Notes: generated by a model not told the origin, from the letters alone. A stretch of 64,000 nt of DNA from Euglena gracilis (GCA_039621445.1 CP154954.1:32465455-32529454); one strand, 5' to 3'. Counted from the stretch's first letter, positions 8,448 through 58,500 are shown. A program made the numbers and translations.

Positions 8448-8574
8448 AACCGTGTGTATTCACCTGGGATGAATTTCAAGCTCCCATTTGTGGAGTGGCC
8501 GATAATTTATGACTGCCGGACACGACCTTCCGAAATATCATCTGCCTCTGGAAGTCGTGACTTGCAAATGGTCA
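8448..8574 (+). CDS. PHB: Prohibitin exon (3' boundary uncertain by a few nt)
   Basis: ccacag| acceptor; [10 protein letters not shown]...GSRDLQMV motif. Confidence 0.9.
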
Positions 8575-11500: not shown

Positions 11501-14500
11501 GGCCTTTTTTGGGTCTAAAATCAATTTTTCAAACTATTTTGAAGGAAAGGAAGATGAAGGAAATGTCCGACGACCAAAAGATGAAGCCCTCGGAATGCCC
11601 TATCCAACCATGTTTTATTTTTTTCCCAACTCTTGATGTAGCCCGAGTTACGGCCATTCTTCGGCCAACTTTGGCCCATTTTCGAGTCCATTTTGGGCTG
11701 GTTTGGGGTGTCGAAAATCGATGTTTCAAAGATATCTCGAAAATGGAAATTTCAAAATATCTACAGGATGGGCAAATCAAAGGAAATAACTGTGGACCTA
11801 AAAATGAAGCGTTAGGACCTCTGACACCCCGTACAGTACCAGGGGGGGGGATAAGCAAGCATTTCTTGAAAAAATTGCATGGTTGGAAAATTTGTGAAAA
11901 GTCGCATTTTTTACAATTTTTTGCACATTTACCTTTACGATGGTTTTTTTTTGTACAGGCAAACTGCTCTATTACAAGGAACTGGAAGTTGCATATTACA
12001 TAATTTCTGGACCGATTTCACGTCAACAGCAGTGAACCACTGGGTAAACCACCGTGCGATTTTGCACCTTTGCACCATATTTGCTTTTGGTGCGGCACTT
12101 TGCAGTGTTTTTTTGGCATTTTTGAAAAAATTTGCAAGACATTGTTTTGCTGATGTTTTTATGGGTTAGAAAAGCGCAAATAATTGTCCAGAATATGCAC
12201 TGTGTTGCATAGGAAAATGCTGTTGCAAAGTGACAAATTTTCCCCCGAGGAGGTGAAAAGTGAGATGGAAAAAAGTCCTCTAGCAGAAAAGTGTACAACC
12301 CCGCCGAGCTCCTGAAGGAATTTACATGCAAATTGAATTTTTTGCATTGCTTTGCACTTTTTTCTACGCTTTTTTGCATTTTTGCATTGAATATTTTGGT
12401 CCTGGAGCCTGTACAGGGTGATGGAAGGCCCCAGTTATTTCTTTGGGTCTCCACCATTTTAAGATATTTTGAAATGTTCGATTTTTTGACCCCAAAATGG
12501 CATATGTTTGTGGCCAGACGCCTAGCTGGTCCAGGCGGCCTATATGCAGGGGGTGGGGATCGCACCTTGCCCCGTTTTGATCTTTTTTTGGGTTACAAAA
12601 TTGGAAACCTTCAAAATATATATCTGGCCAATTCTTTAAAAAGCCATTTGTAATGTTATTTTGATTCCCCTGCAACTGAACGCTGCGCCAGGCCGCCGGG
12701 CCGCCGGGCAACCATGTCTCCCAAGCATCTGCTGCTCCATGCCACCATTAGGCAAGTAAAGAGCTCTACACAAAACCTGGTATTTAGCAGGCTTTTGAAG
12801 GGATTGCCGGGCCCCCCCGGGGGGGGCTGGACTGCAGCTAGTCCAAATTTGGCTAGTGGGTTTTCTAGCAGACCCCCCCCCCCCGGGGGGGCTGCTAGCA
12901 GGGCTAGATAGTGGAAAATTTTTTCCCAGTGACCGGCGCGAAGCGCCAAAAATTTTTTTGGGACCCCCAAAAATGGCCAAAAATGCCCGTTTTTGGCCAT
13001 TTTTGGGAATTTTTGGAGCAAAATCAGCCAAAAACCTGTTAAAAACCTCATTTTCAAGTCCAGGGGAGCCCGGACCCCCCGGGGGGAGGGGGGTCTAGCT
13101 AGTCCACTTTTTCCAGTGTCTAGCCGATTGGCTAGCCAGTACCCCCCCTGGGGGGTCCTTAAGCAAAAGCCTGGTATTTAGGCGTCGAACCAAACCCCTT
13201 AAACCCCCTGGGGGGCTTTACATTTGAGGATGGTAAGCTTTTTGAGAGAGGATTTATAATAATTCTTTCTTGCTTCACCAGGTGATTCAATGTGTGTTTT
13301 TTTGTTGTTGATTCCTTTGCCCAGTTCTTCTGTTTACAGGGTGGACAAATATTCAGGTTGTTTTTATTGTGCTTTTTGATCGGTGTCAGCTCTCACACCC
13401 CTCTTCCACGAAGCCCCAGACAAAGTGATTAACAGTAACTGGAAAATGGTCTAAAAATTGCCCCAAAACGACAGAAAATGCATGCATGGCAACAAATATT
13501 GACTTCTCAGGCATTTTTTTAGGCAAAGTTGCCTAATTTGACTCTTCAATGAAAAGAAAGGACAAAACATCTTGACACATAGCAGAACAGAGCTAAAACT
13601 GGTTGGATATTGAATTTTACCATTCTATTTTTCAAAAAAACACACACAAACACCGTTTCACCAAAATGAATGAAATTGTTTTTTTTTTAACCATAATGCC
13701 TTTTATCATATGTTTTGTCACTGTAATTTTTGTCTATGCTTTAACCTCACTGCAAAAGTTCCTAGAACTCGTTTGGTAATACCTTTTTAGACTCTGGACA
13801 AGGGTGGCCAAAATGGACTCAACCCCAATCCACCACTGATCTCCAACCAGTCTCACTCAACTCCCAGTCGCAATTTGGGTCCAGCTCACTGCAGCCAGAT
13901 GTCACCAAAAATTCCCAAAATTCTCTGGGTTTACCTTGAGGTGTGCCCAAACATAGCTATGGCTGCTGGATTGTTTCACAACTGAATTTGTGGTTTTTGG
14001 GGAGTTTCAGCTAGCCTGATCCAGCTTGGCAGCCAGCTTCCCCCCCCCCCCAGCCAGGGCATTAAGTGAGCGTTGGCTTTGTATATGGAGGGGGGGCCAA
14101 CCCCCTCCCTAGAGGGGGTGGGGTCTGGGGACCCCCCATACAACCAAATTTTTTTCTTCCCCGGAGAAAAAATTAACCCCCCCCCCAAATATAAAGCCCC
14201 CGGTTTTATATTTGGGCGGAAATTTCAAGACCCCACAGGGGGTTTTATATTTGGGGGGGTTTATATTCAATCGGATAAATCAACTTTTTGGCGGGACACA
14301 GTAGTCACTTTTTCGGTCCAAAATCACAAATATGTCCACCTGGGGGGTCAAAAATTTTCCCTTTTTGGTCGAAGGAGCAATTTTCAAACGTTTTTGGTAA
14401 AAATTGCACCCAAATCTGCCAAAAATCGCAATTTCAGGAGAGATTTTGTCGACTTTCCGGTCGCGCCAGAGGGGGGGTTTTACATTCGGGCGGGGTTTCA

Positions 14501-17500
14501 AGGTCCTCAGGGGGGTTTTATCTTTGGGGGGGGGACGGGGGTGCTGGACCACCCCGCTGCCCGGGGAGGGGGGTCCGGGACCCCCCCTTCCCCCTTCTCT
14601 CACTTAATACCCTGCCCCCAGCCCAGGGTTGTACAAGAATCCCCAAAATTCTATGGGCGGGCTGCCCCCCCAGCAGGCCTTCCCGTATTTCGAGGGGTGC
14701 CGGTGTTTAATTCAAAGTTTTCCTTGGGCAGTGCGTGGTGGGGGGGGGTTGACCCACTCCTTCCCACCTCCTGGGTGGGGGGTCAGACCCCCCCCACACC
14801 AGGCTTTCGAGCACAGCCGCGCCCCACTGCAACCATCCAGCACCTTCCATGATATGTTTCAATTCAGTTTCACCAGTGGTTTGTCTCTGAGAGTTTCCCA
14901 CAGGCTATATGATGATGTTTCGGATTGCGTGTTATGGCTTCACAGGAAACGAGGTCATGAAGTCTGTCCTGGCACAGTACAATGTTTCGGAGTTGCTGAC
15001 GCGCCGGCAGGATGTCAGTGCTGAGATCAGTACGCATCTCGTGAACCGCTGCAAGCAGTTCAACGTGATGGTGGAGGTGTGTGCTTTACCTTTTGGCCAA
15101 TTGTTTGTTAGAAATCAACAGGAAATAGCTGCAGGCATTTAAAGTAGTGCCATGTCGAATTGGTTTAATCCCATCTAATAAGACAGGGCCTCTACAGGAG
15201 CAGTGTTCAAACAGGAGCACCCCATCTTGAACAAAAAGCATTCACCACACAAGCACTCCTCCCCAGTCCACCCAAACAGAAGGATGGGAAGCCTTTCAAC
15301 GGAGTTGCGGCAAGCTATTGCATAATTTTCCCAAAGGAAGGAAGTATTTTTGGCTAAGAAGGCATTTTTTTGACTTTCCCCCTCCCCACAAATGCCTGAT
15401 TCATGTGGGATTTAAGAGGTGAGGGATGAAGAACAAGATGCAATGACGTCTATGACATAAGCCGGAACCAAAATTATAGAGCCCCCCTTGCTGGAAGCTG
15501 CGTGACGTCCAATAAATGTGCAAAGCCCTCATACAGCCTGCATTTATTTTTCATAGTTCGCACATCTGTTCAGTTTTTGTAAGAGGTTTGGAAGTATTGC
15601 TTTTTTTGTTTCCAAGCAGGTTTTTCAGGTGCTTCTTTGAGTCCCGGGTAGTGCCAGGAGCAAGTGTGGAGTAGGTTGGGCTCTTCGCAGGCACATCATG
15701 TCCCCTTTTTCCGCCCCCTCCTGCAGGACGTGGCCATCGTGCACCTCACCTTTGGGCGCGAGTACTCCTCCGCTGTGGAGGCCAAGCAGGTGGCGCAGCA
15801 GCAGGCGGAGCGGGCTCGCTTCCAGGTGGAGCAGGCAGTGCAGGAGAAGCGCAGCAAAGGCAGGGTCCGGTCGGGTCGGGGCAGTTTGGCGGGGGGGGGG
15901 GGGGCTGGGCTCTGGGGGATGGCTGAAAGTTCGATATGAGATGAAGGCTGCTTCCGGGTTTCGTTGATTTCTTTTGGGTCTTTGGGCGAAGAAAGTTTGC
16001 AGGTTCAGGTGGTCTTTGGGGGGACAGGCACCTTGTGTTACGTTGAGGACCTTCAGGACCACCCTCAGGTGTAAGGGGCAAAAAAAACAGCCGATTTGGG
16101 GATTGAACGGGGTCAAAATTAGAAAAAATATAAGGCCAAAAAACCCACATTTTGACGTTTTGGGTGGATGGGATATGGTCCAATATTGCCAGAAATCATC
16201 TCCCCCCCCCCCCCGAAGTCGATCTGTTTTTACCAAAATGTGGATATTCTCGGTCATTGTTCCTGTGGGGTTTTGACTGAATGTGCGGGGCGGGTTTTTT
16301 TTTTTGCTTGAGGAAGTCCTTTGAGAAATGCACCTGTATTTGTCATGCTGTATCAGTGACAGCACCCTGCATCCAATTGTCCTTGCAGAGGGTGAGGCAG
16401 AATCAGCTAGGCTGATCGGAGATGCCGTCAAGAAGAACCCGGGGTGTGTAGTGTGTGGCATGCCTCGTCCACTCAATGGATGCCTCACTTCCAACAGGCA
16501 TATGTTTTAACTCTTCCTTTTGATTGCTGAGGTTCCCCCATAGGCATGTTTCTCATTCACTTGCAATTGAACATTCCCAGTGTCAGCTGCAAAGGTACAA
16601 TTTTCCTCACCCCACACCGAGACCTGACATCTACTACGAGTGGTAAATATGAAAGGCAGCTTTTTTTTTGATTTCTGGCGGGGTCCCACTGTAAAGCGAT
16701 CCAGGGACTGAAGGCACTTCTGCTTTGGGCCTGGAAACTTTATATGTGATGGGTGGGGGGCGGACGACCACCCCCACCTCCATCATCCCAACCCACTTTT
16801 TCCGGTTTTTTTTTTCATATGTGTCAGGATTTTTAAATAATTTTGCTTCGGTGCTGAAGGAATTTTTCTTAATGCGACCACTCCTCCCATGCCCTCCTGT
16901 GCCTGCTCCGAAGGTGAACATGGCGAAACACATTTTTGGGCATTTTCAGGGGGAAGACAAGAAACCCACGCTTCCTTTTGTTAAAAATGGGACCCTTTTG
17001 CAAATAAAGGCTGTCATAAGTCATTGTAAAATCTTGTTAAACTTGGAGGAGGTGTTTAGATCTGGGGTCTCCCAGATCTGGTCTCCAGATGTGCATGCAA
17101 AAGGACACGAAAGGTATTGCTTTTTTGCCATCTAAAATCTGCAGATTGACACCCACAGTTGAATGTTTCCAGGTTTGCATTTTTGGGTGGGGCTTCAATT
17201 TCGCCCCTGCATCGAAACAGCCACCTAAATTTTCCACCTCAAAAATAATAATTTTCGAACAATCAAAATTGGCAATCAATTGCCAGTTTTTTGATGTGTT
17301 TTAAAAATGCATGAACTTTTTTTGCCAAAATAGAATTGGTTGACGTAAAATTAATTAGCTGTCCCAATTTGTTTGATCTAATGGCAAGCCCTTTCCTGGA
17401 AAGGAGTTAAAAGGATTTCCATTTGTGGATGGTTTGCCATTCAGAATACGTCGGTGGTTTTTTCAATTTAAGCCGATCGTTCTACTGGGGAGGGGAGAAC

Positions 17501-20500
17501 CCCCCCCCAGAAAATTTGGAATCCTGACTTTTGGTTTCCTGAGCCTCCGCGGAGCTTGGTACCTGAGCCTCTCCGGAGGCTGGTTCCTGACCCTCCGCGG
17601 ATCCTCCTCGTAAGTGACCAATTTTGTACGCAGGCTATGTCTATGAAACAAAAAGAAAATGGTTTGAACGGTTGACCCTCACCCCCCCCCACTCCCCCCA
17701 CTCTCCCACATTAATGCCCAAAATGGAGGAATTTATTTTCATATTTCACCCCCACACCCCGCAAAAAAAAGAAAATAAACAAAGCTTTTGTTTCTTCGCA
17801 CCCACCCCCCAGCGCACCCCCACCCCACAAAAAAAGGAAGTTAAATTTTTGGTTCTTTCCCTGCAACCCCCCAAACCCCGCCTTTTAGCAGAGCCCAAGA
17901 GCTTTGCGTGCCCAAATCAATTTGCCGAGGGGAATGCCAAAAAAAGATTTGTCCAAATAACTTTGCCCTCATCAAGAAACAAAAGTGAAAAGCGATGCAT
18001 CTTTCTGGAAAAGAAGGAGGCAAAAAGTGCAAAGAAACGCCACAATATTTTGCTCTCCAGTGAAGAGGAGTATTAAATTAATTAAATTCATCACAGCACT
18101 GTTTGATGTCAAATTGCTTGAAGAAAAAGTGGCAAATCAATAATAATTTTGCAGGGTTCCAGAAAAGGTGGTCCACTAATTTTGCAGGGACAAAGTCATT
18201 CATGGACCCCTAGTGTTCCTTCCCCCCCCTGTCGCTGTTATCATCAGACAGCCACCGGACCCCACCGGACCCCACCGGATCCCACCGGATCCCACCGGAT
18301 CCCACCGGATCCCACCGGATCCCACCGGATCCTGACGACGGGGCAAAAGATCCTGAGCACCTGGCTGGGCCCATTGCTGTTGATTGCCTCTTGATGCCTT
18401 GTTGATGGCCTCTTGGTGTTCTCTGCTTTGCGGTTTTCCATCACAAAATCATGTATTTTGGGTTCATTTTTCAAAAGCAGGGTCGACCCCCCCCACCTCC
18501 CGGTTGGGGGGTCCACCCCTCCACCAGGACTTCCCATTCTGCCGTGGCCTGCCCCGAAAAGACCATTACATACCTCTCCCCTCTTCCCCTGGAAGTTGGC
18601 AACCAGCCCAAACAATCACTTAGTCATTGACCAACCCCCTCCCTTGCACATTGTGTAAATCGCCCAAAAATTCTGACGCTCTGTAAACGGAAGAGGAAGA
18701 ATATACAGACCTTTTTGGTCCTCTGTCTGCGATTGAAGTACTGGGTCATTTGGAGATGATGGGGGAAACCGCGTGAAAAAAAAACAGGAGAATGCAAAGA
18801 AGCGGTTTTCCGCTTCCTCAACCCCAACGAAATAATTTTTGAACAGATCACTAACCCCCCCCAAATATAACCCCCCCCCCAAATGCAAAACCTCGCCCAA
18901 ATATTAAAACCCCCTGAGGACCTTGAAACCCCGCCCGAATATAAAACCCCACCTCAGGCGCAAAGCGCCGGAAGGAAAAAAAATGACAAAATCTCTCCTG
19001 AAATTGTGATTTTTGGCAGATTTGGGAGCAGTTTTTACCCAAAAGTGTGAAAATTGCTCCTTCGCCCGAAAAGTGAAATTTTTGGACCCCCAAGGGTGGA
19101 CATATTTGTGATTTTGGACCGAAAAAGTGACTGCTGGTCCCGCCAAAAAGTTGATTTTTCCGACCGAAAAAAAAAATATACCCCCCCCCCCCAAATATAA
19201 AACCCCCACGGGGGTCGTGAAATTTCCGCCCAAATACAAAACCGGGGGTTTTTGTATTTGGGGGGGTTATATCAGAAGAAGAATACCACTGAACAATCTG
19301 AATAGGAAATTACACTGCATTCATTGAAAACATCAAACCCTCAAGAGAAGTAAATGTTATATGTTGGTGAGTTGCACACATTGCATATACGGTTAAAACC
19401 AGGGCGGTCCATAAGGGACGGGAAGTTTTTTTTTTTTTTTCGTTAAGGACCGCCCCTTAAGGACCGCCCCCCCGACCAAGGATCGACCGGGACTTGAACG
19501 GGGGTCGAAAACCAAAAAGTCGAAAAACGCAATTTTTGACGCTATGGGCGGATGGGCGATGTTCCAAAAGTGCCAGGAATCACTTTTTTTCCCGAAGTCG
19601 ACCCGTTTCGGGCAAAATACGGCCACTTTTCGGTCATGGATTTTCAAAAAAATTTTCTCAGCTGTGCCGGGACGGGATTTTTTTTTTTTTTTTTTTGCTT
19701 AAGGACCGCCCTGGTTAAAACTGGCCAACACTTACTCTCGTTATAGCATGTGGGTAGCAATTAATTCAATTCAAGGAAGTTCAACTTAAAATTTTTGACT
19801 TTGAAACTTTGAAATTTTGAGAACAATTTTACGGGGTTCAAATTTGACTCCAAAAATATTACCAAAAATGTTGTGCAAGGTTGCAACAAAACTTTGACCT
19901 ATTTTGGGACCCGTATAGGGGGTCCCCTAAAACCCCCCAAACCCCATTTTTTTCACATCTTCTAAAATTTCAACATTTCTCATATTTTGATTTTGAGAGG
20001 TTTTTGAAGCAAAAAAAATGCCATTGAAAATCCAAAAAGTTTCCAAAGAGAAAAACTCTCAGTAAAATTCGAATGCTCCAAAATTTGGTCCCATTTTTTT
20101 GACCTGCATTTTTTTTTGATCCCCCTCCTGATAACTAACAATTTTCAACCCGAAAATTTTGGAGATTTTTTTGGGGGAAATGTTGTTTTCCATCAAAAAA
20201 TGATGTATTTTCTTAGGTGGCCTAACTCGCACTTAGCTTTGAAAGGGACTGTAAATTTGCGCCGACGCGCAAATCTAAAAAAAGTCTGTTTTCAAACACC
20301 GTGGCCTGAGACTCAGGACAGTCTGAAGATAGTGTCTCCCTGCACCCCAGGGCCTGGGGACGAAAGCAACGACTTGGAACTCCACGGTCTACTGTCACAG
20401 CGTTCCCGGGGCCCAGTGTGCATGAACACAAAGCGCCGGGTGATGAAACAAGGGGACTCCATTGTGCATTTGCGCTTTGGCGCAATTTTTTTTCATTACA

Positions 20501-23500
20501 AAAAAATAAAACCATTTGCGCTTTGGCGCAATTTTTTACTTTTTGTATTTCAACATGTGGGTGACCATTGCCACACTTGCACAATGATAACAATATATGT
20601 GTAAACGTGTGTTTCCATTGCGCCAAAGCGAAATGGGTAGGCTCATGAAGAATGGAAATTTAATAGGTATATTGCGCCAAAGCGCAAGCAGAAATACAAT
20701 TTTTAAAATTGCAAAAACAACATGGCCGAAGCGCAATATAACTGGTTAAAACTTATCTCACAACGCAGGGAGAAAACGGCCCTGGTGGAGTAAGAACACC
20801 AGAGGGGATAGAGCAGAAAAATGTAGTGCAGGTGGATGGCAGCCTACTCTCAGTCACGTTGCCTTAAAATTGGTCAACATTGCGCGTCGGCGCAAGAGCC
20901 ACGTTGCTTTTACAATTTTAAAAATATATTTCTATTGCGCTTTGGCGCAATATAACTCTTAAATTTTCATTTTGCAAAAGCCTACCCATTGCGCTATGGC
21001 GCAACAGCCATCAATTTTTATTTTCTATTTTTATCACTGCCAGTAGAGAAAGCAGTCCTGGGAGCATCTCATCACCAGAGCGGACAGAGCTCAGGTGGAG
21101 GGAAACCTTGCCTGGGACAGGAAGCCAACCCCCTGGTGTGTGAAAGCAACCACCAACTACTTGATATCCAGACGTGTCTTGTCCTGTACGTTGTGAGCCC
21201 AACTTCCAGTGCCAGAGATTCCTCCCACTTACCTCGTAGTTACAGTGTGGCTAAAAATTACGGAAGACAAAAATTACGGCAAAAAAAATTACGAGAAAAA
21301 ATTTTTTGGCAAAATTTTTATTTTTGAAAAATTAATTTTGGCAAAATCTGATTTTTTTCCAGAAAAATTTCTTTCTTCCCTTCAACCAGCGATTAACTGT
21401 ACTCCAAGGAAGGACAACCTCTTTGAACTCACTCTTGGCGTGGCGATCAATAGCTCCTCGAATCCCATGTTGGCATGCCCAATCTGTGATAATTTTTGTG
21501 TAACCGTCTGTCCAAACATGAGGTTTTGCCTTGGAAGGTGCAACCTCATCCAACCAACACAACACATGGGACGGCATGTGAATTCATGGCTAACGAGGAG
21601 AAAAAGGAAAACTAACAATTCCTTCTTTTAATCAGCAGAGGGAAATTTGGAAGGACAATGGTTCATATTACGAGTGTGAAAAACGTGGCCACAAGCGCAT
21701 TCTGACAGATTCCGAAATGGCTGAGGTGCAAGATGCACAGAAAATGAGGTCTGGTCCCCATGAAGGATTGACCTCCAGCACAGGTGAGCGACATTTTTCT
21801 CCTGGTTGCGTGTTCAACGTATTTTTCTGTCCCCCAGTGGCTGCAATCGCTCGAGTTTTAGTGGGTGGATGGGCGACGAAAGAGGTCATTTTTCTCTATG
21901 GATTTTTCATTGAATGTGCTGTGACAGTGGAGTTTTTTTTTATTTGCAGAACCGCCCCGCCTCAAAGCGTCCCTTCGTGCTGAGTCCACACATCCTTGTG
22001 AATGTCGCACACAAACAGCCCGTAAATGCGTTCGCTGTGACGAGTTTGTGTGTGAGAGTTGTTTTGCTGGCCACGAAGACACAGTGTGTCACTGACTCTG
22101 AGGAGTCAAAGCATGGCCGTCCCAGCATTGTGCTTGTGGCTTCCCAAGAGGGCGTCGGAAACCGACGGAGAGAGAAAATTACGAGGAAAAAAATTATGGC
22201 AAAATTTGGATATTTTGCCAAAATTTCTGTCTTCTGTAATTTTTAGCCGCACTGTAAGCATGCCTGAGGGGCCCTTCTTTTTCGCCGACTTTTGAAAGTC
22301 GGAAAATACCTGTTTGGAAAATAACAGGCACCAGATGAACCCTGGGAGTCACAGCCGAGGAAACATTTTTTGCACGCCGAAAAGGTGCTTTAAAGAAGCT
22401 CGTCACCCCCTTTTTCTCACCCAGGATTTGAAGCACACAACTTTGGGGATGGGCGAATGGATTGAGAAATCGAAATGGTCCATTAACAACGGCGGAGAAG
22501 GGAAGACATGTTGACACACTTTTTTTTTTGGTAATTGCAACCCACCAGACAGCCACATCACACCGGGCAGATGGAGGACATGGTTCAGCCAAAATGTGTC
22601 TTTCTGTCAACATCCCAAAAACCCTACTTTGTGCACCGAGTGCAAGGTCACTAAGGCTCCACAGCCCACCGCCCACGATTTGTCTTATTGGAACAGCCAC
22701 TCCCTCCCCAGTGCCTGAATAGTTGAAAAGCACCAACCGAGCTTCTGGCACAGCAGCGTTCAAACCCCCCTCATCATTCTCCTCTATCGCCCACCTTCTC
22801 ACACAGCACGAACACATTCAAATGCATCTGCTTTTTGAAAGGACACTGCGCTTAAGCGCAAATTTTTAATTTGCGCTTAAGCGCAAGTTAAAAATCTGCG
22901 CTTAAGCGCAAGGTAAAGCAGAAGCCCCCTGAGCTTATGGGAGTCCCTCTGATGTGTTACGGTGTGTTGGGGGCCCTCTCTGAACGGCCAGTGTGCGGAC
23001 TTGGTGAGGAAATACATTGCGCCGAAGCGCAATGGACATGCCTACGTAATGCACTATTTGATCATTCAGATTACACGTCAACCGTGTGTTTGCATTTCTC
23101 GTTTTTTGCATGATGCTTTGCGCTTCGGCGCAAGGTATTTCCTCACCAAGTCCGCACACTCGCCGTTCAGAGAGGGGCCCCAACACACCATAACACATCA
23201 GAGGGACTCCCATAAGCTCAGGGGGCTTCTGTTTTAAATTGCGCTTAAGCGCAAATTTTTTACCTTGCCTTCTGTGCCCGGCAGTGTGGGGCCTGAAGTT
23301 GCTCACCAGACGTTGGGACAGGTCCATGGGCTTGCCCTCCATCCCCCCAACACCGCCCGCCTGGGCGGTTCCCACTGTACCGTTCCTCGCACTTCAAGCA
23401 CCCAGGGATCACAACTCTGTGATATGCCATTTTTTCCCCCAACTTTTCACGTGCATGCAGAGTCCACCCTCTGGACGCCTCAGCAGGCAACCCTTAACGG

Positions 23501-26807: not shown

Positions 26808-41244
<14,437 letters not shown>

Positions 41245-41604: not shown

Positions 41605-41633
41605 GCCCCCCCCCCCTCACTGCAGGTCAGCAG
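41605..41633 (+). promoter_or_regulatory. Candidate spliced-leader trans-splice acceptor for KRI1
   Basis: C-rich tract followed by CAG acceptors just upstream of the ATG; no upstream exon seen; SL trans-splicing is general in euglenozoans. Confidence 0.45.
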
Positions 41634-41634
41634 T

Positions 41635-41790
41635 ATGGCTGCCGAGCCCAAGAAGGCTGCACTGCTTGGCAGTGACGACAGTGACGGGGAGGCGGCGCCG
41701 AAGAAGCTCTCGCTGTTCGGCGAGGACGACGACGGGCCGGCCGAGGAGGGGGAGGGGGCGGTACCCAGCGCCCTCAACTCCCTGCAAGTC
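41635..41790 (+). CDS. KRI1: KRI1 first coding exon
   Basis: ATG after a C-rich tract and AG; MAAEPKKAALLGSDDSD...NSLQV; in-frame join to DKKYA via a paired intron. Confidence 0.8.
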
Positions 41791-43993: not shown

Positions 43994-44029
<36 letters not shown>

Positions 44030-47000: not shown

Positions 47001-50000
47001 AAAAATTTGGGTGGTTTGGGTCCATTTTAGGCATTTTGACAAAATGGCGATTTTGAAAATTTATGGTCGTTTTGGGGGGGTTTGGAAAACACCCCCCTGG
47101 AACGTCCTGAAATTTTAAAAAATAGAAAACAGCTGGAGAACGCCTGGCCTCCGGAGCCCCGGTTGTTTGGCGATGCTGCCGGACCCCCCCTCTGGAGGGG
47201 GGGTGACACGGTGTTGCAGGTGAAGAAGAGGCAACCGCCTAAGCAACCCGCCCATTTTTGAGCCTCTCGTGAGTCCCGAGGAGCAGTGATGGGGAGGTGA
47301 ACAGACAGCACTGCCCAAAAGATGCCATAATTTCTTGGAAGAGATGGTTTAGGCGGTAAACCGTGCAAAATTTGTTTTTGTGATGAAGGGACGCTGCCCT
47401 AACGGAGGGGACTGATTTGGGAATAACATTAAAAATAAGGTTAGGCGGTTTACCGCGTAAAGAAGTGCTGATTCCGCAACGAGGTGTGCGCTGTGTGTGC
47501 TTGCCCCGGGTGTCCTGATTGGTTTACAAGCTCCCCAGCATCCTGCTCCTCCTGGGCTGTGCACCACACCGTATCATTTAGCAGCGCGGGATGACAGTTG
47601 GACCAAGGAAGGCACGGGAGGGAGGGGGGCGCGGTTGCCTGTGCTGCTATCCGGAACAGAGGGGCTGGGAAAGGCTGCAACACCATTCTGGCCATCACAA
47701 GTTCAAGAACTTGTGGCAAAGGTGGACTGAAATGGGATGCGGTTTGAGTGCGTGGTGCCCTTAATTTGTCAGCGCACAAGTTCCCTGCTGATGACACAGC
47801 TGGGCCACGCAAAACTGAACATTTTTTCCCACCTGTCAACTTCTGCTGAGAGATGCTCAAAATTTTTTTGTTTGAGGAGGTGCGGAAACAGAACACAACT
47901 TTTTTTTGGAAGTTTTTGTAAGACCGTTTGCAGGCGGATCTCTGTGCACATGAATGCATGAAACGTTGGAAAGATTCATGCACAGCTGACCAGAATCGGT
48001 GGGGTGTTGTATTTTTATTTTGTGTGGTGGATGGTGCTGTGTCGGGGTGGGGTGTCACACACGGCAAATGAATGATATGGGTGAGTTGGAGATCTTTAGG
48101 CGGAAACCCGCGCAGAAGGGTTTTGAAATGAGAAACGTTCTAGTTTGTGGATGACACGTGGGAGCAGGAAGTGGGAACGCGCTGAATCCTCTAGAAGTGG
48201 GTCATCACGTGAATTTATTAATGAATAAATTTGGGGGAGAGGGAGGAGATTTTGAGACGTTGGTGAATGGTAACAGTGGGCGGTTATCTGCGTATTTCGT
48301 TTTTATTTTGCGCGGGTTTCCGCCCAGATGAGGTTTGGGCGAAAACCTGTGTGGAGCTTGTTGTTGTCCTGATGGGTTGTGGTTGTGATGTTTTGGTGTC
48401 CCGAAGTGTCTGCGTCGGTGGTCGGTGTCGGCGGCACAATGTTTGAAAGTTGGGCGGGACAGGTTGAAAGGAAGCTGTGGCTGTGGCTGAGAGGAAAGGA
48501 AGCTGAAGCTGTGGCTGCGGCGGCGGGACAGCAAGCACCCGACCAGGCGGAAACCTGCCTGGCATTTGAGCAGGACGCGGACACCCTCCTCTCCAATGAG
48601 GAGGCGGTAATGTTCCCCCTGGCTAGCGGTGAAGGTGTCATGTGCAGGGAGAGCAGTGGAACGCATGTGTCAGTTGCCAGGCCAGGTGAGCTGCGGTGGA
48701 GGTGATATTTTGTTACTGTCCCGAAGAACAGCCAAAAACCTGAGGTTGATATCTCAGGAGGAACAAAAGCACCTCCCAGGGCCCTCCACTTGGAACCCAA
48801 CGGTGTTTGTGGTCCAAAATCAGGGTTTGGGGAAGGCTGACGAAGAAGTGATTCAAGATATGGACGGAGAAACGCCTGTTTCAGCAGCTGGTGGCAGCAG
48901 TTGAAAAATTTTGTGGGGTTTTTGGAAGGAGTCCTCCAAGTTCTGAAAAATTCAAGGCCTTTTTAATTGTTTTTTGAAAGAGTTTTACAGCATTTTTCCT
49001 TTGAAAAGCTGCAGTTTTTGCTGAAATTCAGACAAAATGCCCAAAGCACCTCTTTTTTTCTGGCTCTTCTTCCTTCGGGTCCGGCAACATGCTTCCGGAG
49101 GAGGCAACGGTGGTCTCCACAGTTAGAAACCACGTGGAAGGGGGGTAAACCAGAAGGTTGTCATTCTCAACCAACGCCGGGTCGATGTTTGACCCGGTGC
49201 ATTTGGCTTCCATCCATGTAATCAGCCTCAGCACAAGTGTGTCCGGTCTTTTTGGAAACCACCCCTGTTCTGAGTGCCCAAGTTTAAGGGCTGCCCGTCT
49301 CTGCTCGTTTGGTCAAACCCTGCTGGTGCCATCTCCTCTCCCTGGTTTCCATAAACCTCCACCTCTCAAGCTCACCACAATGCGCCAGACACCATTCAGT
49401 TGCAAATTGCCTGGCATCCTGGCAACAAAGTCTGTCGTCCGTGTACTCCGCAAAGCTTCACGCCTGTGACTGGCAATATTTTGCAAACAAACCAGCAGAG
49501 TTCATTTCTAGGGCGGTTTCTATCTTCCACCCCCATCCCATCGTCCACGAATGTTTTGCTTCTTCTGCCCACCCTTAACCCGGCCAGGCGGTTTCCCGCC
49601 TGACTTCTCTGACCTCACAGCTGGTATGCCCCCCCCCTCCATCTCATATGTTGTGTCTGTGCAAACCGCGTTTCCATCCGAACTCATAAAAGGAGACCAG
49701 GCCTCGGTGCTCAAGTGTGACAAGTCAGCTTGTTGGCCTCCTGAGCGGGTACTCTGTTTTTTTGTTTAAGCGGATAACCGCCTACGTCGTCTCTTGGTCC
49801 ACATCCAACCCCATGCCAACTCCTCAATGGTGTTTTTAAATTATTGTGGAAATGGTCAGGCGGTGAACCGCCTGAACCAAAATTGTTGGTGGGGGGAAAG
49901 ACTTTGTGGATTTTGGCTCATACCGGATGCTGCGAGTGCAGAGTTTCATAAATCAGTTGCTGCTTCTCTTTTTTGTTTTTGGGTCGTTTTAAACAGGAAC

Positions 50001-53000
50001 CTTTTTCTATCCAAGTGCGTTCTATACAAATGGGGAGGGCAGGATATCGTCGGGTGGCACCTGCCCACGTCGCCAGGGAGTTCCCCAACTACCATTGGCT
50101 ACGGTGTTACTGTCCCCCAATCCAGAGACCCCAGCAGGCAATGGCGCCTGGCCTGTGCCAGTCTCGACACAGGGAGGGGGGGGTGAGGGCAACACCACCA
50201 GGGCACCACCATTGTTTTTTCTTTACTCCAAGATGGATTTCCGCCTACACCAAGTCGCCAAAAACTCACCACGTGTACACACACAGCAGGCGGATTCCCT
50301 CCTACCAATCGTCAACTGTTTGTGTTATTGTAGCCGATAATCCGTGTACCATTCTTTGTTTTCATTTTTTAGGCGGTAATCCGCGTACAAGTTTATTCTG
50401 CGTGGATATCCGCCCAAACATTTAACTCCGTCGTCTGTCACCTCTTGTTTCGTTTTAGGCGGTTATCCGCATACACTTGCAATATGCATTTGTTTCTCAA
50501 ATACCGTTAATAACATAAATCATGAAGACACAGCCCCGTGTCACACCCATTCAAAGTCAGTGTTTTTCCACCCATTTCAAACAGTTCCAGTACACCCCCC
50601 AACTCACACAATTCACGCACAATCGTAAATCGTTTAAGCGGAATACCGCGCAAAACCAATTCCGGAAAATTTTCGACCAAAGCTGCCACACACCCTTCTC
50701 AACCTAAAATTTTGTGCCTTTTTAGGGGGGTTTCAAAACAGCCAAAAAACGTCAAGAAACACAAAAATTGGTTGGGCAATTTGCGCCGCCTAAGTCTACC
50801 CCTGCTGATTTTGCATGTTGGGAAGTTTCCATTTTCGCTCGTATTTGATGACTCGTCAGAAAAAAATTCCAAGGTAGGGTAAGCAACATGGGTTGCCTGA
50901 GTGCCTTCCAGCTTGAGATTGAAATGCCTCCCCCCCATTTTCTCAATTTGCTCGCTGGACAGGTGGAATCCGCCATATTATTGAAACATTGGCCATCACT
51001 GCCATCATAGGAAGTAGTGTACAGTCTGACCTTTTTCAAAAAAGGTTGGTGAGATGGCTGGCAAATTCTTGAGGGGACAGGCTCAAAGGAAGTTGACAGC
51101 GACAGGAAAGACACAGGGAGAGGAGGTTCACTCCAACTGGAACACCAATGCAAAGCTTTAGTTATTTTCTCCTCTGAACCGTTGTTGGGGATGCCAGCAA
51201 CCTTTTTTTCACTGTTGAGTTTCCTCATTTCCAAATTTAACTTGACAGTCTGAAGTTTAAACTTGAACGTTTAAGGTTTAAGGTTTTTTTTAAACGACCC
51301 AGGGACCCAGCGTGCGCAGATGGGCCTGGCCCGACCAGGCTTCTTTTTAACTTGGAAGACCCCGGGGCCGGGGCCAGACCCCCCAGGGGCTCCTGGGCCA
51401 GAGGCCCAGGTGTGGGTTTCAGTGCGAACCACCAAAATTTTTTGGAAAATGCCCTTAGACGGCCCGATTGGGATGGTCCCCACCAGGGGTCTTAAAAAGA
51501 AGCCTGGGCCCAACCCCTGGGGCCGGCCTGGGTGGGGGCTTTGGGGCAAAAAAAACTGCCCAGGTGACAGTTGATGGGGGGTGCAAATCGGGTGGGGGTG
51601 CAACAAGGCAGCGCAAGGGATGCAAAAATGTGCAAAAGGGTGCAAACTATGAGAAAGGTGCACTTTTTTGAAAGGGCCCAAAGGGCCCAAAACCGACCCT
51701 CCCCGAGGGGTGGGGGGTGTCTGGTATGGGCAGGAACCCCATGCCAAGGCACCCCCGGGCTTGTCAAAAGAAGCCTGTGCGCACCCCTGCACAGTCTGCT
51801 GGGCTGCCTTCCCACTGGGGTCCGCAGGGCTTCACGGAGCAGATCGCGGCGCCACAGATGGGGCCTAGCCTGCGGCGCAAGGAGTCGGCCCGCAAGAAGC
51901 GGCGGGAGCTGCAGGCCGAGAAGGAGGCGGAGCGGGAGCGCACGTTCCAGGAGGAATTGAGCTCAGGCGACCCCTGGAACGTGATTGATGGTGGACTGCG
52001 CTGGCGAGTGTGTGCACGAGGGGGGTTACATATGTGTCTGTCGAGCGGGTATTTGTGGGTTGTGCACATTGCGTGTTGTGTGTTGTGTGTTGTGTGTTGT
52101 GCACATTGCGTGTTGCTGTATGTCTACTATGTTACGTGTGAAATTGAAAAGTTTGTGTATTGCAAGGGTCTCATGGCGCTGCCGCGTGAAGATGCAGAAG
52201 AAGAAAGCATTGCAAGAGAAGTCAGCCCTGCTGAAGGAGATTGCGGGCGCCAAAAGCCGAAAGCCACTCATACAGTGTCCATCTGTATGTATTAATGCGC
52301 ATATTCCTGGACCGCAGAATAAATAATAAAGGTTCATAATTGGCGCATTGGGTTACCTGAAATGGGAAAAAGTGTCATGGGCAATTTATTTCAGCGCCTT
52401 TTTTTTTGTCAATAACAGTGGTCTCCGCAAATGTTTCTGCATTTCAACATGTTGTGGAATGTCCAACGCTACAGAATTTACAGGGGCAAAGGAGAGGAAC
52501 ATGAAATTGTGTGAAGGGCTGCGGTGCACTGGCGGTGGAGCCGGACCCCGAGCCATGCGATGGGTCGCCCCGGCACAGAATGGGTCTCGCCCGCAAGGAC
52601 CGCTTCTCAGCGGACCTCCTGCACAAGATCCGCCACGCCTCCCTGGAGGAGTACGACCAGCTCATGGCGCAGGTGTTCAACGACGACTACTACGAGGAGG
52701 CGGACACCGCGCAGGGCCCCGCTGAGGGCGGAGCAGGGCCCCAGAGGCTGCATGGGCGAAAACGATGGTTCCAGTCATTTGGCACCCGTCCGGGTCATTT
52801 CCTTTTTAGGGGGAACATAGACACCCCGAAGTCATACCCCCCCCCTAATAGTGCTGCGGGGCCAATAGAGCTGCGGGTCCAAATAGTGCTGCACCCCCCG
52901 CCGGATGAAGCGAGCGTCCAATAGTGCTGCACCCCCCCAAATCACAGCAATGTGAAATGCGTAGAAGCTGGTGCAGCCTACTGCAGGCACCGCTTTTAAT

Positions 53001-55502
53001 CCGCAGAGAAGGGAAAGGGGGCAAATTCCCACCAGAACAACTCATAGAAGTCGTCCGAAGATGAACCACACAACCTCACCAGCCTCAGAGAAGGACATTG
53101 AGCAGACAAAAAGGGTGCCTGTGGTGATAGGTCGGGACTAAGAGGCACCCAGTCCAATAGTGCTGCAGGTCCAAATAGTGCTGCACCCCCCACCGCCGGA
53201 GGCGGCCGTCCAATAGAGCTGCGGGTGCAATACTATTTGGGGGGGTTTACACACAAAATTGCGCACAGATATGTCACCCTCATATCAAACGACCACCCTG
53301 TCAAGCGATCATCCCTTCCCTGTTCAGAGAACCCCTTTCAGGAGGGTTTTTCGTGTTTCAGGGACAGGGCGGTCCATAAGGGACGGGAAGTTTTTTTTTT
53401 TTCGTTAAGGACCGCCCCTTAAGGACCGCCCCCCCCGACCAAGGATCGACCGGGACTTGAACGGGGGTCGAAAACCAAAAAGTCGAAAAACGCATTTTTT
53501 GACGCTATGGGCGGATGGGCGATGTTCCAAAACTGCCAGGAATCACTTTTTTTTCCCGAAGTCGACCCGTTTCGGGCAAAATACGGCCACTTTTCGGTCA
53601 TGGATTTTCAAAAAAATTTCCCGGCTGTGCCGGGACGGGATTTTTTTTTTTTTTGCTTAAGGACCGCCCTGTTCAGGGAAGCCGAGTATCCCTCTGCAGC
53701 GATCACCCCCCCCCCCCCAATCAGAGGACAGACAAGGTTGTCTGCTGCGTGCTGAACACTTCAGGTGCATGCTGACTCCTGTCCCGGCGGCACCCTGGCA
53801 GGAATTTCCACCCGGAGGCCGAGGACTGGACAGAGCAGCCGGAGCTCCGCAAACTGCTCGGCACGGATGCGTCGTGGGAGAAGCGCCAGCTCGTGGCATC
53901 TGTGTTCAGCGAGACCCCGACGGCCACGGAGGCCGCAAGCACGCAGGCTGATGGGCCAGCGTTGGCCAGAGCAAAGGTTTGTTTGGATGCTGAAGGAAGG
54001 ATGTGCGTGGGAACGGCTGCCAAATCACGTCCATTTTCAAAAGTGTTATCATGTTGTGCCAACCGTCCCCTACCAAAACTCAGAACTTTCTCCAACGCCA
54101 TTATGAAGATGTTTACCAAACCAAATTCGTCAAGTCTGTGGCAAATGATCTTTCGGATCGCCCTGCCTTAGACCAGAAGGTTTGGACCCCCCAACTGAGC
54201 ACAGGAACGCACGAGGAAAGGGCATTTCCTTGAAAGGCAAAAGTGGAAATGTGGTTTTGAACAAACAGGTGCCAATACAACGAAGGCTCAGCGACACCAG
54301 AAAAAAAATTGATTTCTGGCATCTTTGGAGAGGTGCGCCAATCCACCCAAATCATAGCAAGACTCGGTTCAATTTTACAATTTCCCCTAGTTTTGAGCCC
54401 TGGATGGCAGCTTGGCTTCTCGTGGCATTTTTTTTTGGGGTATGTTCCACTTAAGAATCTCCCTGGTCTGAAGCGAATGCCTGGACAGGGGTGGTAGGTC
54501 ACGGGAGGTGGGGTGGTCGTTGCTTGGGTCGCGGCCGGCCGCGGCACCTGCCTCCCATAAACCAGCCTCCCGTGAGTCCCCATCGGGACTGGATGTCCGG
54601 CGGTGATGGTCCCGCCGTGGCCCCTCCGGGCCCCCACCCTGGCCCCAGCAGCGGCGGCGGCGGGGGCGGAAAGGCGCCGGCCGGGCCGCAGGACTCCGAC
54701 AGCGACAGCGACGGGGACGATGCGGGGCGGCGGCGGCGGCGCACGGTGAGCAAGGAGACGCTGCAGCGGCAGCTGGAGGAGGAGGCCAGGGCAGGGGGGG
54801 GGGGAGGGGCTGGCCGGATTGCAGTCGCCGGGGCCCCACTGGACCTGCTTTGAAGGTCTCTTTTGACGATTTTAGCAAATGGTGGATGCCTGTCGACGTC
54901 AGCTCGCCTTGGGTAATGCAAAATGTGGGTTTATTCTGGTTTCTGACCCCTCCCATGTGAAGACCCCCAGCTTTAAGCAGGATTTCAAGACCCGCATGCA
55001 AAAATCAAATGTCCCCGCACATCGTTTGGGGGTTTCCTTGGAATTTTCCTTTCCTTTCTTCTTTGTAGAAGTTGAAGTGGATATTTTCTCCCACACCAGC
55101 ATTCATGGCCGAGAGGGGTACTTAAAAAAAAAGCTCTCAGCGGCCCTCACACATGGTCTTCCTCTTTGAGGATGGATACAATTTGTGCCAAACCCCCCCA
55201 GTCCTGCCAGAGGTACAGTACACCCAGAAGGAGATAGACGAGCTGGGGTACGAGGATGTCATTGCGGGCGGCACCGTGAAGTGCCGCTTCAAGTACCGCG
55301 GCCATGCCTCGCCCTGGGACTAGTGCGGCTGTATTTGAACCACTGGGTCGTCAACTCACTCGGTTGTTTCAGTCGGAGTGACGGTCTCCCAGTCAGCCGC
55401 TGCTCAACCTCCCCACACCTGGGGCCACACACACGGCGAGGGCGGCGCATGCTCTCAACATCGACCCCATCCGCTTCGAGGGGCTGGACACCACTGACCT
55501 CC
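41635..55502 (+). CDS. KRI1: KRI1 homolog (40S biogenesis factor), multi-exon, 3'-partial. Exons 41635-41790, 42535-42609, 42994-43101, 43420-43595, 44088-44232, 44816-44848, 45011-45154, 45479-45511, 45612-45773, 46213-46290, 51828-51960, 52181-~52253, ~52531-52708, 53803-~53960, ~54590-54783, 55212-55299, 55457-55502
   Basis: Colinear KRI1-like motifs: VDKKYASTLLRRKREQELRLMRQKFG, acidic tract, EAFLKxYFINDGW, EDEEF..FEHAY..KYHHQEE, SLRRKESARKKRRE, KKKALQEKSALLKEIAG, EYDQLMAQVFNDDYY, and the C-terminal domain LGYEDVIAGGTVKCRFKYR/NIDPIRFEGLDTTDL. Confidence 0.88.
43964..44030 (+). repeat. (GACA)n microsatellite
   Basis: Direct observation. Confidence 0.95.
46213..46290 (+). CDS. KRI1: KRI1 exon
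   Basis: EDEEFTNNQEVFEHAYEEFKYHHQEE; GT donor at 46291. Confidence 0.8.
46885..50794. mobile_element. 3.9-kb TIR DNA transposon (CTTAG ends, 5-bp TSD), copy 2
   Basis: Ends CTTAGCGGTGCAAATTGCCC / GGGCAATTTGCGCCGCCTAAG; TSD TCTAC; extra internal blocks relative to copy 1. Confidence 0.88.
51336..51506. mobile_element. hAT-like MITE family D
   Basis: TIR CAGGCTTCTTTTTAA / TTAAAAAGAAGCCTG; TSD GGCCCGAC/GGCCCAAC (7/8). Confidence 0.82.
51828..51960 (+). CDS. KRI1: KRI1 exon
   Basis: ccgcag|; PSLRRKESARKKRRELQAEKEAERERTFQEEL. Confidence 0.82.
52834..53249. mobile_element. MITE-like element with repeated AATAGTGCTGC motifs
   Basis: Imperfect inverted ends CCCCCCCTAATAGTG / TACTATTTGGGGGGG; many internal motif copies. 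Confidence 0.55.
53365..53671. mobile_element. hAT-like MITE family A, copy 2
   Basis: Near-identical to copy 1; 8-bp TSD TTCAGGGA. Confidence 0.92.
55212..55299 (+). CDS. KRI1: KRI1 C-terminal domain exon
   Basis: VQYTQKEIDELGYEDVIAGGTVKCRFKYR. Confidence 0.88.
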
Positions 55503-55568
55503 TGCCAGGGACCCTGCCTCTGTGACCCCTTCGGGGGTCAAACTCGAGATCGAACACAATCTGCGTAC

Positions 55569-58500
55569 CTCTCTCTCTCTCTCTCTCTCTTTCCGCACAC
55601 AGCGGTAAAAGAGCCAGGCGGTTTCGGATCCAGCCGGGCCTTCCTTGTCGATGCCCCCGACGCCCGGCTGGTGGGGGCAGACCGCCTGGTGACGGGGCAC
55701 TCATGTTCCGCGGGTGGGCGAGTCATGGACCCCAAGGGTATGCGGACCCTCAGGGCCACCCACGGCTCCATCCAGGCAGGCGAGATACAGCCCCGTGGGC
55801 ACCCACCTGGAGAGCGGCTCCGCGTGTTGCATGGCCCTCGGGTGCTGCCGTCACCCGAGGAACGGCCCAGGAACTCCGGTTGCCAGGAGCGGGGACCCCG
55901 GGGGCCACTCGCCCCACTCCTTGGCGTGAAGGTGGTCACCACTCTGGGATACTCTGGTCCACGGCCGGCGCCGATTGGGGTCCTGGCACCCCGTCAGCCC
56001 GCCTCCTTCACCCAGAGATGGGCCAGCCTTCCCGGAGCTACAGCCCGCATAGAGCCACTTGCTTCGACCCCAAGCAAGGTGTGGGGTGCCCGACCCGCGA
56101 CTCACCAGGAGGGTAACCGGCTTCACCCACACGTGGCCCTTTCCTCTGCGGGGGCCACTCGCCCCACTCCTTGGCGTGAAGGTGGTCACCACTCTGGGAT
56201 ACTCTGGTCCACGGCCGGCGCCGATTGGGGTCCTGGCCAGGGCGGTCCATAAAGGACGGGAAGTTTTTTTTTTTTCGTTAAGGACCGCCCCTTAAGGACC
56301 GCCCCCCCGACCAAGGATCGACCGGGACTTGAACGGGGGTCGAAAACCAAAAAGTCGAAAAACGCATTTTTTGACGCTATGCGCGGATGGGCGATGTTCC
56401 AAAAGTGACAGGAATCACTTTTTTTCCCGAAGTCGACCCGTTTCGGGCAAAATACGGCCACTTTTCGGTCATGGATTTTCAAAAAAATTTCCCGGCTGTG
56501 CCGGGACGGGATTTTTTTTTTTTTGCTTAAGGACCGCCCTGGTCCTGGCACCCCGTCAGCCCGCCTCCTTCACCCAGAGATGGGCCAGCCTTCCCGGAGC
56601 TACAGCCCGCATAGAGCCACTTGCTTCGACCCCAAGCAAGGTGTGGGGAGCCCGACCCGCGACTCACCAGGAGGGTAACGGGCTTCACCCACACGTGGCT
56701 CTTTCCTCTGTGCCGACTTGCACTGGAGGCTGTGCGGGCGGGACTTTGCGCTCGAGTCCTTGCAGGCCGAGAAGCACCACCTCGGTTGCTGCGTGGGGTG
56801 GCCTAGCTGATGTTTGTAAACCGCGTCAGCTGGCGGGAGCCCATATTCTTTTCGCCGTGGGCGGTGGCGGCGTCGGCTCACCCCAGACTCCGAGCCCCTA
56901 GCCGTCTTGGGCTGTGTGGGGAAGCGCTTCAGTCCCATGCGCCTGGCCTCGAAGGGCTCGCAAGCGCTAGTTGCCCGGAAGGAAGGCCGGGACTTTTGTT
57001 CCACCCGTTGTGGGGTGGCCGCGGTTTCCCGCGTGTCTCTCTCTTTCCGCACACAGCGGTAAAAGAGCCAGGCGGTTTCGGATCCAGCCGGGCCTTCCTT
57101 GTCGATGCCCCCGACGCCCGGCTGGTGGGGGCAGACCGCCTGGTGACGGGGCACTCATGTTCCGCGGGTGGGCGAGTCATGGACCCCAAGGGTATGCGGA
57201 CCCTCAGGGCCACCCACGGCTCCATCCAGGCAGGCGAGATAAAGCCCCGTGGGCACCCACCTGGAGAGCGGCTCTCCGCGTGTTGCATGGCCCTCGGGTG
57301 CTGCCGTCACCCGAGGAACGGCCCAGGAACTCCGGTTGCCAGGAGCGGGGACCCCGGGGGCCACTCGCCCCACTCCTTGGCGTGAAGGTGGTCACCACTC
57401 TGGGATACTCTGGTCCACGGCCGGCGCCGATTGGGGTCCTGGCACCCCGTCAGCCCGCCTCCTTCACCCAGAGATGGGCCAGCCTTCCCGGAGCTACAGC
57501 CCGCATAGAGCCACTTGCTTCGACCCCAAGCAAGGTATGGGGAGCCCGACCCGCGACTCACCAGGAGGGTAACGGGCTTCACCCACACGTGGCTCTTTCC
57601 TCTGTGCCGACTTGCACTGGAGGCTGTGCGGGCGGGACTTTGCGCTCGAGTCCTTGCAGGCCGAGAAGCACCACCTCGGTTGCTGCGTGGGGTGGCCTAG
57701 CTGATGTTTGTAAACCGCGTCAGCTGGCGGGAGCCCATATTCTTTTCGCCGTGGGCGGTGGCGGCGTCGGCTCACCCCGGACTCCGAGCCCCTAGCCGTC
57801 TTGGGCTGTGTGGGGAAGCGCTTCAGTCCCATGCGCCTGGCCTCGAAGGGCTCGCAAGCGCTAGTTGCCCGGAAGGAAGGCCGGGACTTTTGTTCCACCC
57901 GTTGTGGGGTGGCCGCGGTTTCCCGCGTGTCTCTCTCTTTCCGCACACAGCGGTAAAAGAGCCAGGCGGTTTCGGATCCAGCCGGGCCTTCCTTGTCGAT
58001 GCCCCCGACGCCCGGCTGGTGGGGGCAGACCGCCTGGTGACGGGGCACTCATGTTCCGCGGGTGGGCGAGTCGACCCTCGGACCAGGCCATGGGACTGAA
58101 GCGACCCACCACCAGACGGCTAGGGGCTCGGAGTCTGGGGTGAGCCGACGCCGGAACGCCCGGCGGGCATGGCTCGGAGCTCGCGGTCACATCGCCACCA
58201 CCGCAGCCGAGGTGGGCTTCTGGCCTGCACGGACCCGGCCAGTCCGCCCACAGCCTCCGTGCAAGTCGGCACAGAGGAAAGAGCCACTGGGGTGAAGCCC
58301 GACCCTCCTGGTGAGTCGCGGGTGGGCTCCCCCACACTTGCTTGGGGTGGCGGGGCTTTGCGGGCTGTAGCTCGGGAAGCACATCTCTTGAAGGAAGGGC
58401 TAGGGGTGCCAGGACCCAACCGCGCCGTGGCAGAGTGGTGAGCCACCTTCCGCCGGAGTGGGGGCGAGTGGCCCCCGGGGTCCCGCTCCTGGCAACCGGA

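Follow-up and report, generated by a model that had tools for sequence, protein, structure and literature searches.

Transposons with CAG/CTG ends and 8-bp target site duplications in Euglena gracilis: a candidate source of nonconventional introns

Where the nonconventional introns of euglenids come from, and why their borders are so oddly asymmetric, has been a question since the 1990s. It is raised again by a stretch of Euglena gracilis nuclear DNA of 64,000 nucleotides (GCA_039621445.1 CP154954.1:32465455-32529454; the window, below), which holds both such introns, in a prohibitin gene and a KRI1-like gene, and short transposons whose ends look like theirs. The original prediction for this locus noted that an origin of these introns from transposable elements of the miniature inverted-repeat type (MITEs) had been suggested earlier. 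Such an origin has indeed been in print since 2014 (PMC3935182) and was restated in 2018, 2024, and 2025. In the part available, the 2014 proposal names no transposon family and gives no rationale for the 3- and 5-nucleotide (nt) spacers at the intron ends. The original prediction offered one: if a MITE runs from CAG to CTG between the two copies of an 8-bp target site duplication (TSD), cleavage 3 nt ahead of CAG and 5 nt past CTG would remove the element plus one TSD length.

The elements themselves are six MITE copies in four families, lying where they had been predicted and entered without strand. All start with CAGG and end with CCTG, with terminal inverted repeats (TIRs) of 10 to 16 bp; families A and C open with CAGGG, and families B and D open with CAGGC. 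We confirmed the 8-bp TSDs claimed for them, at 8 of 8 positions in five copies and at 7 of 8 in the sixth, that of family D. The three family A copies share the TIR CAGGGCGGTCC, are 95 to 97% identical to one another, and repeat the end motif subterminally. They are A1 (19400 to 19713; 314 bp; TSD GTTAAAAC), A2 (53365 to 53671; 307 bp; TSD TTCAGGGA), and A3 (56238 to 56541; 304 bp; TSD GTCCTGGC). Family B (12788 to 13173; 386 bp; TIR CAGGCTTTTG; TSD GTATTTAG) and family C (14055 to 14614; 560 bp; TIR CAGGGCATTAAG/CAGGGTATTAAG; TSD CCCCCAGC) sit together in a 4.5-kb GT-AG intron of prohibitin, and A1 lies in a 7.6-kb GT-AG intron of the same gene as placed by protein mapping. Family D (51336 to 51506; 171 bp; TIR CAGGCTTCTTT, or CAGGCTTCTTTTTAA in the feature list; TSD GGCCCGAC/GGCCCAAC) lies in a 5.5-kb GT-AG intron of the KRI1-like gene. 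A2 is nested in a 1,094-nt nonconventional intron of that gene (52709 to 53802), and A3 interrupts an 892-bp satellite at unit position 9/10.

As a control for chance, we collected all CAG...CTG pairs with a TIR identity of at least 8/10, scored the identity of their flanks, and repeated this on five composition-preserving shuffles. Among the 1,127 pairs in the window, flank identity was 8/8 in five and 7/8 in two, and these seven were the six MITEs and one spurious pair. The five shuffles pooled gave no pair at 8/8 and one at 7/8. The strongest evidence came from A3. In seven other satellite units (flank starts at 55968, 57424, 59793, 60686, 61578, 62469, and 63362), its 20-nt left flank is followed at once by the right flank, and GTCCTGGC stands there only once. 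One occupied site thus has seven empty paralogous counterparts, which proves insertion. The ninth flank base is unlike in three copies (A2, C, and D), which limits the duplication to 8 bp. Taken together, these data show that the elements are genuine, recently mobile, nonautonomous cut-and-paste DNA transposons of E. gracilis.

The satellite that received A3 is GC rich (about 67 to 70% GC), begins just past the KRI1-like stop codon, and fills 55582 to 64000 with at least nine units of 98 to 100% identity. One unit is without positions 171 to 812, and 58072 to 59093 is a diverged inverted stretch of 76 to 78% identity. Its long open reading frames (ORFs) matched no Pfam family, and the satellite has no recognizable coding content. 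Part of the array is covered by RNA reads. Those ending at 56148 could be taken for splicing across A3, but they run on into the canonical satellite unit (7 places) and are best read as coming from other, identical units; we rejected them as splicing evidence.

Fragments and relatives of the families were also found. An old, diverged family A-like element (approximately 16005 to 16322, plus strand) with no recognizable TSD lies inside a prohibitin nonconventional intron (15858 to 16374). Together with the copies that lie within introns, it indicates that MITE insertion enlarges existing introns, which fits the large length variation of homologous introns among Euglena agilis strains (PMC4770533). 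A lone family A right end (...GCTCAAGGACCGCCCTG; 23981 to 24006, plus strand) stands ahead of the last prohibitin exon, at a distance of about 50 nt. A second family D-like right terminus (TTGTCAAAAGAAGCCTG; 51761 to 51777) lies about 270 nt downstream of the full D copy and has no partner left end. Two further candidates were not counted. The stretch at 18896 to 19266 (minus strand) shares an 84% identical core with family C and is without its termini. The element at 4883 to 7160 has the TIR TGGGTAAC and no CAG-type end; it is 2.3 kb long, has a perfect 8-bp TSD (TCAATCGA), and is inserted in palindromic sequence, and none of its four long ORFs could be assigned to a Pfam family. The family A terminus had no matches in a metagenome scan.

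Against these transposons we could set 15 nonconventional introns. Thirteen belong to the KRI1-like gene and were placed by RNA joints, and two belong to prohibitin, where borders were set by exact mapping of the E. gracilis protein. The RNA evidence covered 36600 to 56599 and comprised two RNA-type contig sets and two raw RNA-seq runs; 15 of 37 joints were listed, and our statements on joints hold among those listed. Each joint was assessed after allowing its permitted slide, which was 0 to 4 nt. At least 13 introns had been predicted to have 3 nt before a CAG-like triplet and 5 nt after its complement, and 13 of the 15 do (3 nt, a CAN-type triplet, its complement, and 5 nt), with all three bases of the triplets paired in 10 and CA/TG only in 3. 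A strict CAG/CTG pair with a 5-nt 3' spacer is present in only 5 of the 15. A purine opens the next exon in 14. Many introns were said to start with CAGGG like families A and C, and this held for 6 of the 15, of which 4 start with CAGGGC.

All 15 are on the plus strand and are written here as 5' spacer, paired ends, and 3' spacer. The KRI1-like series opens with GGC CAG...TTG GGGGG (41791 to 42534; 10-bp terminal helix) and AAC CAG...CTG TCCGC (42610 to 42993; 12-bp helix), followed by GGT CAA...GTG AGCGT (43114 to 43440; CA/TG pair only) and GGC CAG...GTG CCCAG (43596 to 44087; TIR matches 13/14). The next, GAG CAGGGCGG...GCCCTG GCCTC (45155 to 45478; register slid +1), has its first 8 nt identical to the family A terminus. 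The intron at 45512 to 45611, AAC CAG...CTG CGCC, has a 4-nt 3' spacer. Further along are GGC CAC...GTG CTTGG (45774 to 46212), GCT CAG...ATG GCGCT (51961 to 52180; CA/TG pair only), AGC CGA...TCG CCCGC (52255 to 52594), and the host of A2, GCG CAGGGC...ACCCTG GCAGG. CAG and CTG are present at 53938 to 54646, with spacers that total 11 in all allowed registers. The series ends with GGC CAGGGC...GTCCTG CCAGA (54784 to 55211; slid +2) and GGC CAT...ATG CTCTC (55300 to 55456; slid +1). The prohibitin introns are ACA AAAG...CTTT GACCT (8574 to 10323) and, in the 517-nt host of the old family A-like element, AGG CAGGGT...ACCCTG CATCC (slid -1).

The 3+5 geometry of these introns is that of the published splicing code, 5'-N3CDG-/-CH'GN5-6|R, which Nomura et al. 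(2025, PMC12501133) defined with knock-ins in E. gracilis. In this code, the 5' spacer is strictly 3 nt, the 3' spacer is 5 to 6 nt (one extra is tolerated), CAG/CTG and terminal pairing are essential, and the following exon begins with a purine. Wholly artificial inserts of 50 bp are spliced when they have these features. The arithmetic of the original prediction is correct: an element plus 3 nt plus 5 nt equals the element plus one 8-bp TSD, so removal is scarless in either orientation.

We then folded the six MITE copies in each orientation (12 cases), adding to every copy the 3 nt and 5 nt that its TSD supplies. CAG-CTG pairing at the base of an 8- to 16-bp terminal helix was predicted in 10 of the 12, and in 10 of the 12 the downstream exon would begin with a purine; both hold in 8. 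A MITE between its two TSD copies would reproduce the code, with 3 nt, CAG, terminal helix, CTG, 5 nt, and purine, and cuts at the code's positions would take out the element and one TSD length and restore the exon. Since artificial inserts with these features splice, we strongly infer that such a MITE, once inserted in an exon, would be cut out so as to leave the original 8-mer and nothing else. Such MITEs would be tolerated in exons, and nonconventional introns are likely to arise from them. The reverse may hold as well, with the code's 3+5 spacing adjusted to the 8-bp duplication.

The arithmetic was also meant to explain the asymmetry of the offsets, and here it falls short. When the duplication is perfect, the message comes out alike however the 8 nt are divided, so the TSD explains the spacer sum only. 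A 4+4 or 2+6 split would be equally scarless, and the 3/5 asymmetry is left without an explanation. One may speculate that the 2-nt difference stems from staggered cleavage, of the RNase III kind, across the terminal helix. An A stands at position +2 of the downstream exon in 11 of the 15 local introns and in 43 of 55 published ones, which recalls position 7 of the hAT target. However, hAT targets are palindromic and the mirror T at position -4 of the upstream exon occurs in only 2 of the 15, so we did not count this as support.

Several results in the window weigh against a descent of the introns from these MITEs. None of the six copies coincides with an intron as placed by RNA joints and protein mapping; a search for introns that are full-length family members had been proposed as a check on the prediction. 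Five lie within larger introns (three in GT-AG introns of prohibitin and, in the KRI1-like gene, one in a GT-AG and one in a nonconventional intron), and one lies in the satellite. No RNA joint on 36600 to 56599, among those listed, borders A2, A3, or D. Within the window, no intron of the 15 belongs to a repeat family over its whole length or matches another intron or a MITE end to end; the repeat matches inside introns are nested MITE copies only. Two of the 15 miss the sum of 8 (45512 to 45611, with 7, and 53938 to 54646, with 11). Anchoring each intron on its CAN/NTG pair, we also set the 8 nt ahead of that pair against the 8 nt that follow it and assessed the agreement by permutation. The excess proposed as a signature of former TSDs did not appear: 38 of 120 positions matched in register versus 35.8 expected from non-self pairings (P = 0.36), and shifted registers gave 27 to 39 matches. 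This null is a weak refutation, because the eight intronic spacer positions are reported to be of free sequence and the introns may be much older than MITEs of 95 to 97% identity. The window, then, supplies the transposon side of the argument only, and the link from MITE to intron is not demonstrated in it.

These negatives are what one would expect if the resemblance were coincidence or convergence. Ordinary transposons would have accumulated in introns, the CAG/CTG hairpin would be needed structurally, and neither the match of 3+5 to 8 bp nor the CAG ends would carry any history. Every MITE copy here is a passenger, no intron retains an 8-mer relic or belongs to a repeat family, and CAG-type ends with 8-bp TSDs are common in hAT elements of organisms without such introns. 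By our own estimate, with about 10 lengths per spacer, the prior for a sum of 8 is about 1 in 10. What speaks against coincidence is that CAG/CTG ends, a terminal helix, a spacer sum of 8, and the same junction consensus all concur, and that loss of relics is expected in old introns, since the spacers may take any sequence in the published code (PMC12501133). In the published junction rules, a pyrimidine precedes the cut and a purine follows it, the same at both junctions, and a consensus so shared is what two copies of one target site would produce. In E. agilis, moreover, 84.4% of introns are "slidable" via junction repeats, and a recently gained intron has repeats of exactly eight nucleotides. 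We regard coincidence as rather unlikely, though well worth keeping in view.

That recently gained intron is intron 4 of gapC in E. agilis strain ACOI 323, gained within the species and strain specific (Milanowski et al. 2016, PMC4770533). Its junction direct repeats are eight nucleotides long, longer than those of that study's other introns. This is the outcome that an origin from a TSD predicts, from an independent source, in a single case. The point that counts against our use of it is that its authors ascribe the repeat to double-strand-break repair. In such an origin by repair or filler DNA, as that study proposed for nonconventional introns, junction repeats would be microhomology or fill-in and MITEs would be unrelated; the short junction repeats of the window, where listed joints slide by 0 to 4 nt, agree with this. 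Break repair predicts neither inverted-repeat CAG...CTG ends nor a fixed length of 8, whereas the same genome has elements that make exactly 8-bp duplications beside CAG/CTG ends. We consider it improbable. The reverse direction, in which the MITEs are nonconventional introns made mobile (for example, by a transposase that recognizes the CAG...CTG hairpin), could draw on the CAGGG(C) termini common to both and on the circular RNAs reported from excised introns (PMC11282704), but the 8-bp TSDs, empty sites, and subterminal end motifs of family A are marks of DNA cut-and-paste and no family member stands at an intron position in the window, so we think it very improbable.

Taken together, we lean slightly toward a link from MITE insertion to nonconventional intron. 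The arithmetic, the fit to the code in 8 of 12 cases, and the gapC intron speak for it, while the window contributes neither a MITE intron nor a relic. As a refinement of a hypothesis in print, the TSD idea is plausible, coherent, and testable, and it gains strength from the 2025 code and from the eight-nucleotide repeats reported in 2016. Parts of it were already in print: the MITE origin, and, in a 2024 review (PMC11282704), the terms TIR for CAG/CTG and TSD-like for the junction repeats. The available text of that review contains neither "hAT" nor "8 bp," and the text of the PNAS paper contains neither "hAT" nor "duplication." We found no literature linking hAT or TSD length to euglenid nonconventional introns, so that the hAT link and the 8-bp arithmetic are what we did not find in print.

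If correct, a reading of the spacers through the 8-bp TSD names a kind of transposon and explains the spacer sum of 8. It predicts 8/8 flanks in young introns and junction repeats of at most 5 nt to the left and at most 3 nt to the right. It would also provide a second, nonspliceosomal route to transposon-made introns at a genomic scale. A knock-in system suited to testing it already exists (PMC12501133). More tentatively, and at somewhat short of even chances in our estimation, nonconventional splicing may be an RNA-level eraser of hAT-type insertions, in which the offsets exist since their sum equals the 8-bp duplication and all exonic insertions are scarlessly removed. Were that so, fossil insertions with decayed flanking duplicates would make up most of the nonconventional introns, which number in the hundreds of thousands.

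The two genes that carry these introns are on the plus strand. The prohibitin gene (8448 to 24174) has six exons covering residues 66 to 291 of EG_transcript_16185 by exact protein mapping, separated by two nonconventional and three GT-AG introns. Its exon at 14945 to 15076 is 100% identical to the transcript-derived E. gracilis prohibitin (P0002, EG_transcript_16185), and this match together with the exact mapping identifies the window as nuclear DNA of E. gracilis. The other gene (41635 to 55525) has 16 exons with 13 nonconventional and 2 GT-AG introns by RNA joints, and its joined exons form an open frame of 605 residues. Exon by exon, Pfam gave weak matches to Kri1 (E = 2e-4) and Kri1_C (E = 0.16), which suggest a KRI1-like protein and from which we took the name. 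At the last base of exon 1 (41790), the RNA has T and the window has C. The T is supported by an RNA contig (depth, 203.2 in X1) and 7 raw RNA reads (X21), and with it the reading frame is unbroken; the mismatch is probably a strain or allele difference. In the first nonconventional intron, about 50 nt (41911 to 41961) are common to many RNA reads that diverge on both sides, with 37 and 24 reads having loose ends. This appears to be a short dispersed repeat found in many transcripts.

Repeats are plentiful elsewhere in the window. Tandem units of about 125 to 165 nt, rich in G and C runs, occupy 39870 to 40600. Their word depth in RNA-type contigs is about 3,600 versus about 200 for exons of the neighboring gene, which points to a transcribed, highly repeated element. 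A segmental duplication links 37241 to 39841 with 46885 to 50795 at 86 to 91% identity, and the second copy sits within the KRI1-like gene's 5.5-kb GT-AG intron. In both copies the motif AGGCGG-www-CCCGC recurs and the RNA word depth is high. The second has two additional blocks of about 620 and 660 nt, which we rejected as young introns or MITEs since they are without CAG/CTG ends, TIR, or TSD. Long (GT)n and (CA)n microsatellites stand in inverted orientation about 800 nt apart (35243 to 35372 and 36087 to 36266). Near the start of the window, 896 to 2778 and 1693 to 3144 are arrays of 113- to 145-nt units with long G and C homopolymers, and an inverted repeat of 176 nt pairs 1693 to 1868 with 2970 to 3144 at 98% identity. 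An Rfam search of the window gave no matches.

The termini of elements in the hAT superfamily follow the consensus YARNG. From TSD length and termini, hAT is our best guess: the 8-bp TSDs and CAG termini behind the original assignment stand, while no transposase family, and hence no hAT transposase, was seen among 49 window translations. Pfam assigned no family to 39 long ORFs of the window, and we found no literature naming hAT in Euglena; both the missing transposase and this silence count against the assignment. Hermes targets nTnnnnAn and hobo targets GTNCGNAC, both with 8-bp TSDs (PMC3276498 Table 4, PMC10368747). Measured post hoc and in a small sample against the hAT-type motif GTNNNNAC, the six TSDs agree at 15 of 24 specified positions; four of the six have T at position 2, and three have A at position 7. 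The P superfamily also makes 8-bp TSDs, at the target GTCCGGAC, which is similar.

Among known systems, the window elements resemble hAT MITEs of the Ac/Ds, hobo, and Hermes type. They share the 8-bp TSD, short TIRs starting with CAG, and an end motif repeated subterminally, and their target may resemble GTNNNNAC. They differ in that families B and D start with CAGGC, which is not of the YARNG type, and in that the 49 translations offer no transposase partner. The only E. gracilis DNA transposons that we found reported are Merlin elements (PMC8101967), which also have 8-bp TSDs (8 to 9 bp). Merlin TIRs start with GG, whereas the window elements start with CAG and the TSD directly abuts the C; shifting the boundary abolishes the direct repeat, and we rejected a Merlin identity. 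With euglenid nonconventional introns (Nomura et al. 2025; Milanowski et al. 2014 and 2016), the MITE ends plus TSD have in common CAG/CTG, a helix at the termini, and spacers of 3 and 5 nt, but the copies in the window are not spliced units and lie inside other introns or the satellite. Introners of Micromonas and other organisms (Huff et al. 2016; Gozashti et al. 2022; PMC11282704) follow a parallel logic: a DNA transposon with TIR and TSD turned intron, with the TSD co-opted for a splice site and so contributing to exact removal. Introners are removed by the spliceosome and form many near-identical introns, whereas the window has no near-identical intron family, and for MITEs of the window type removal would be by the nonconventional machinery.

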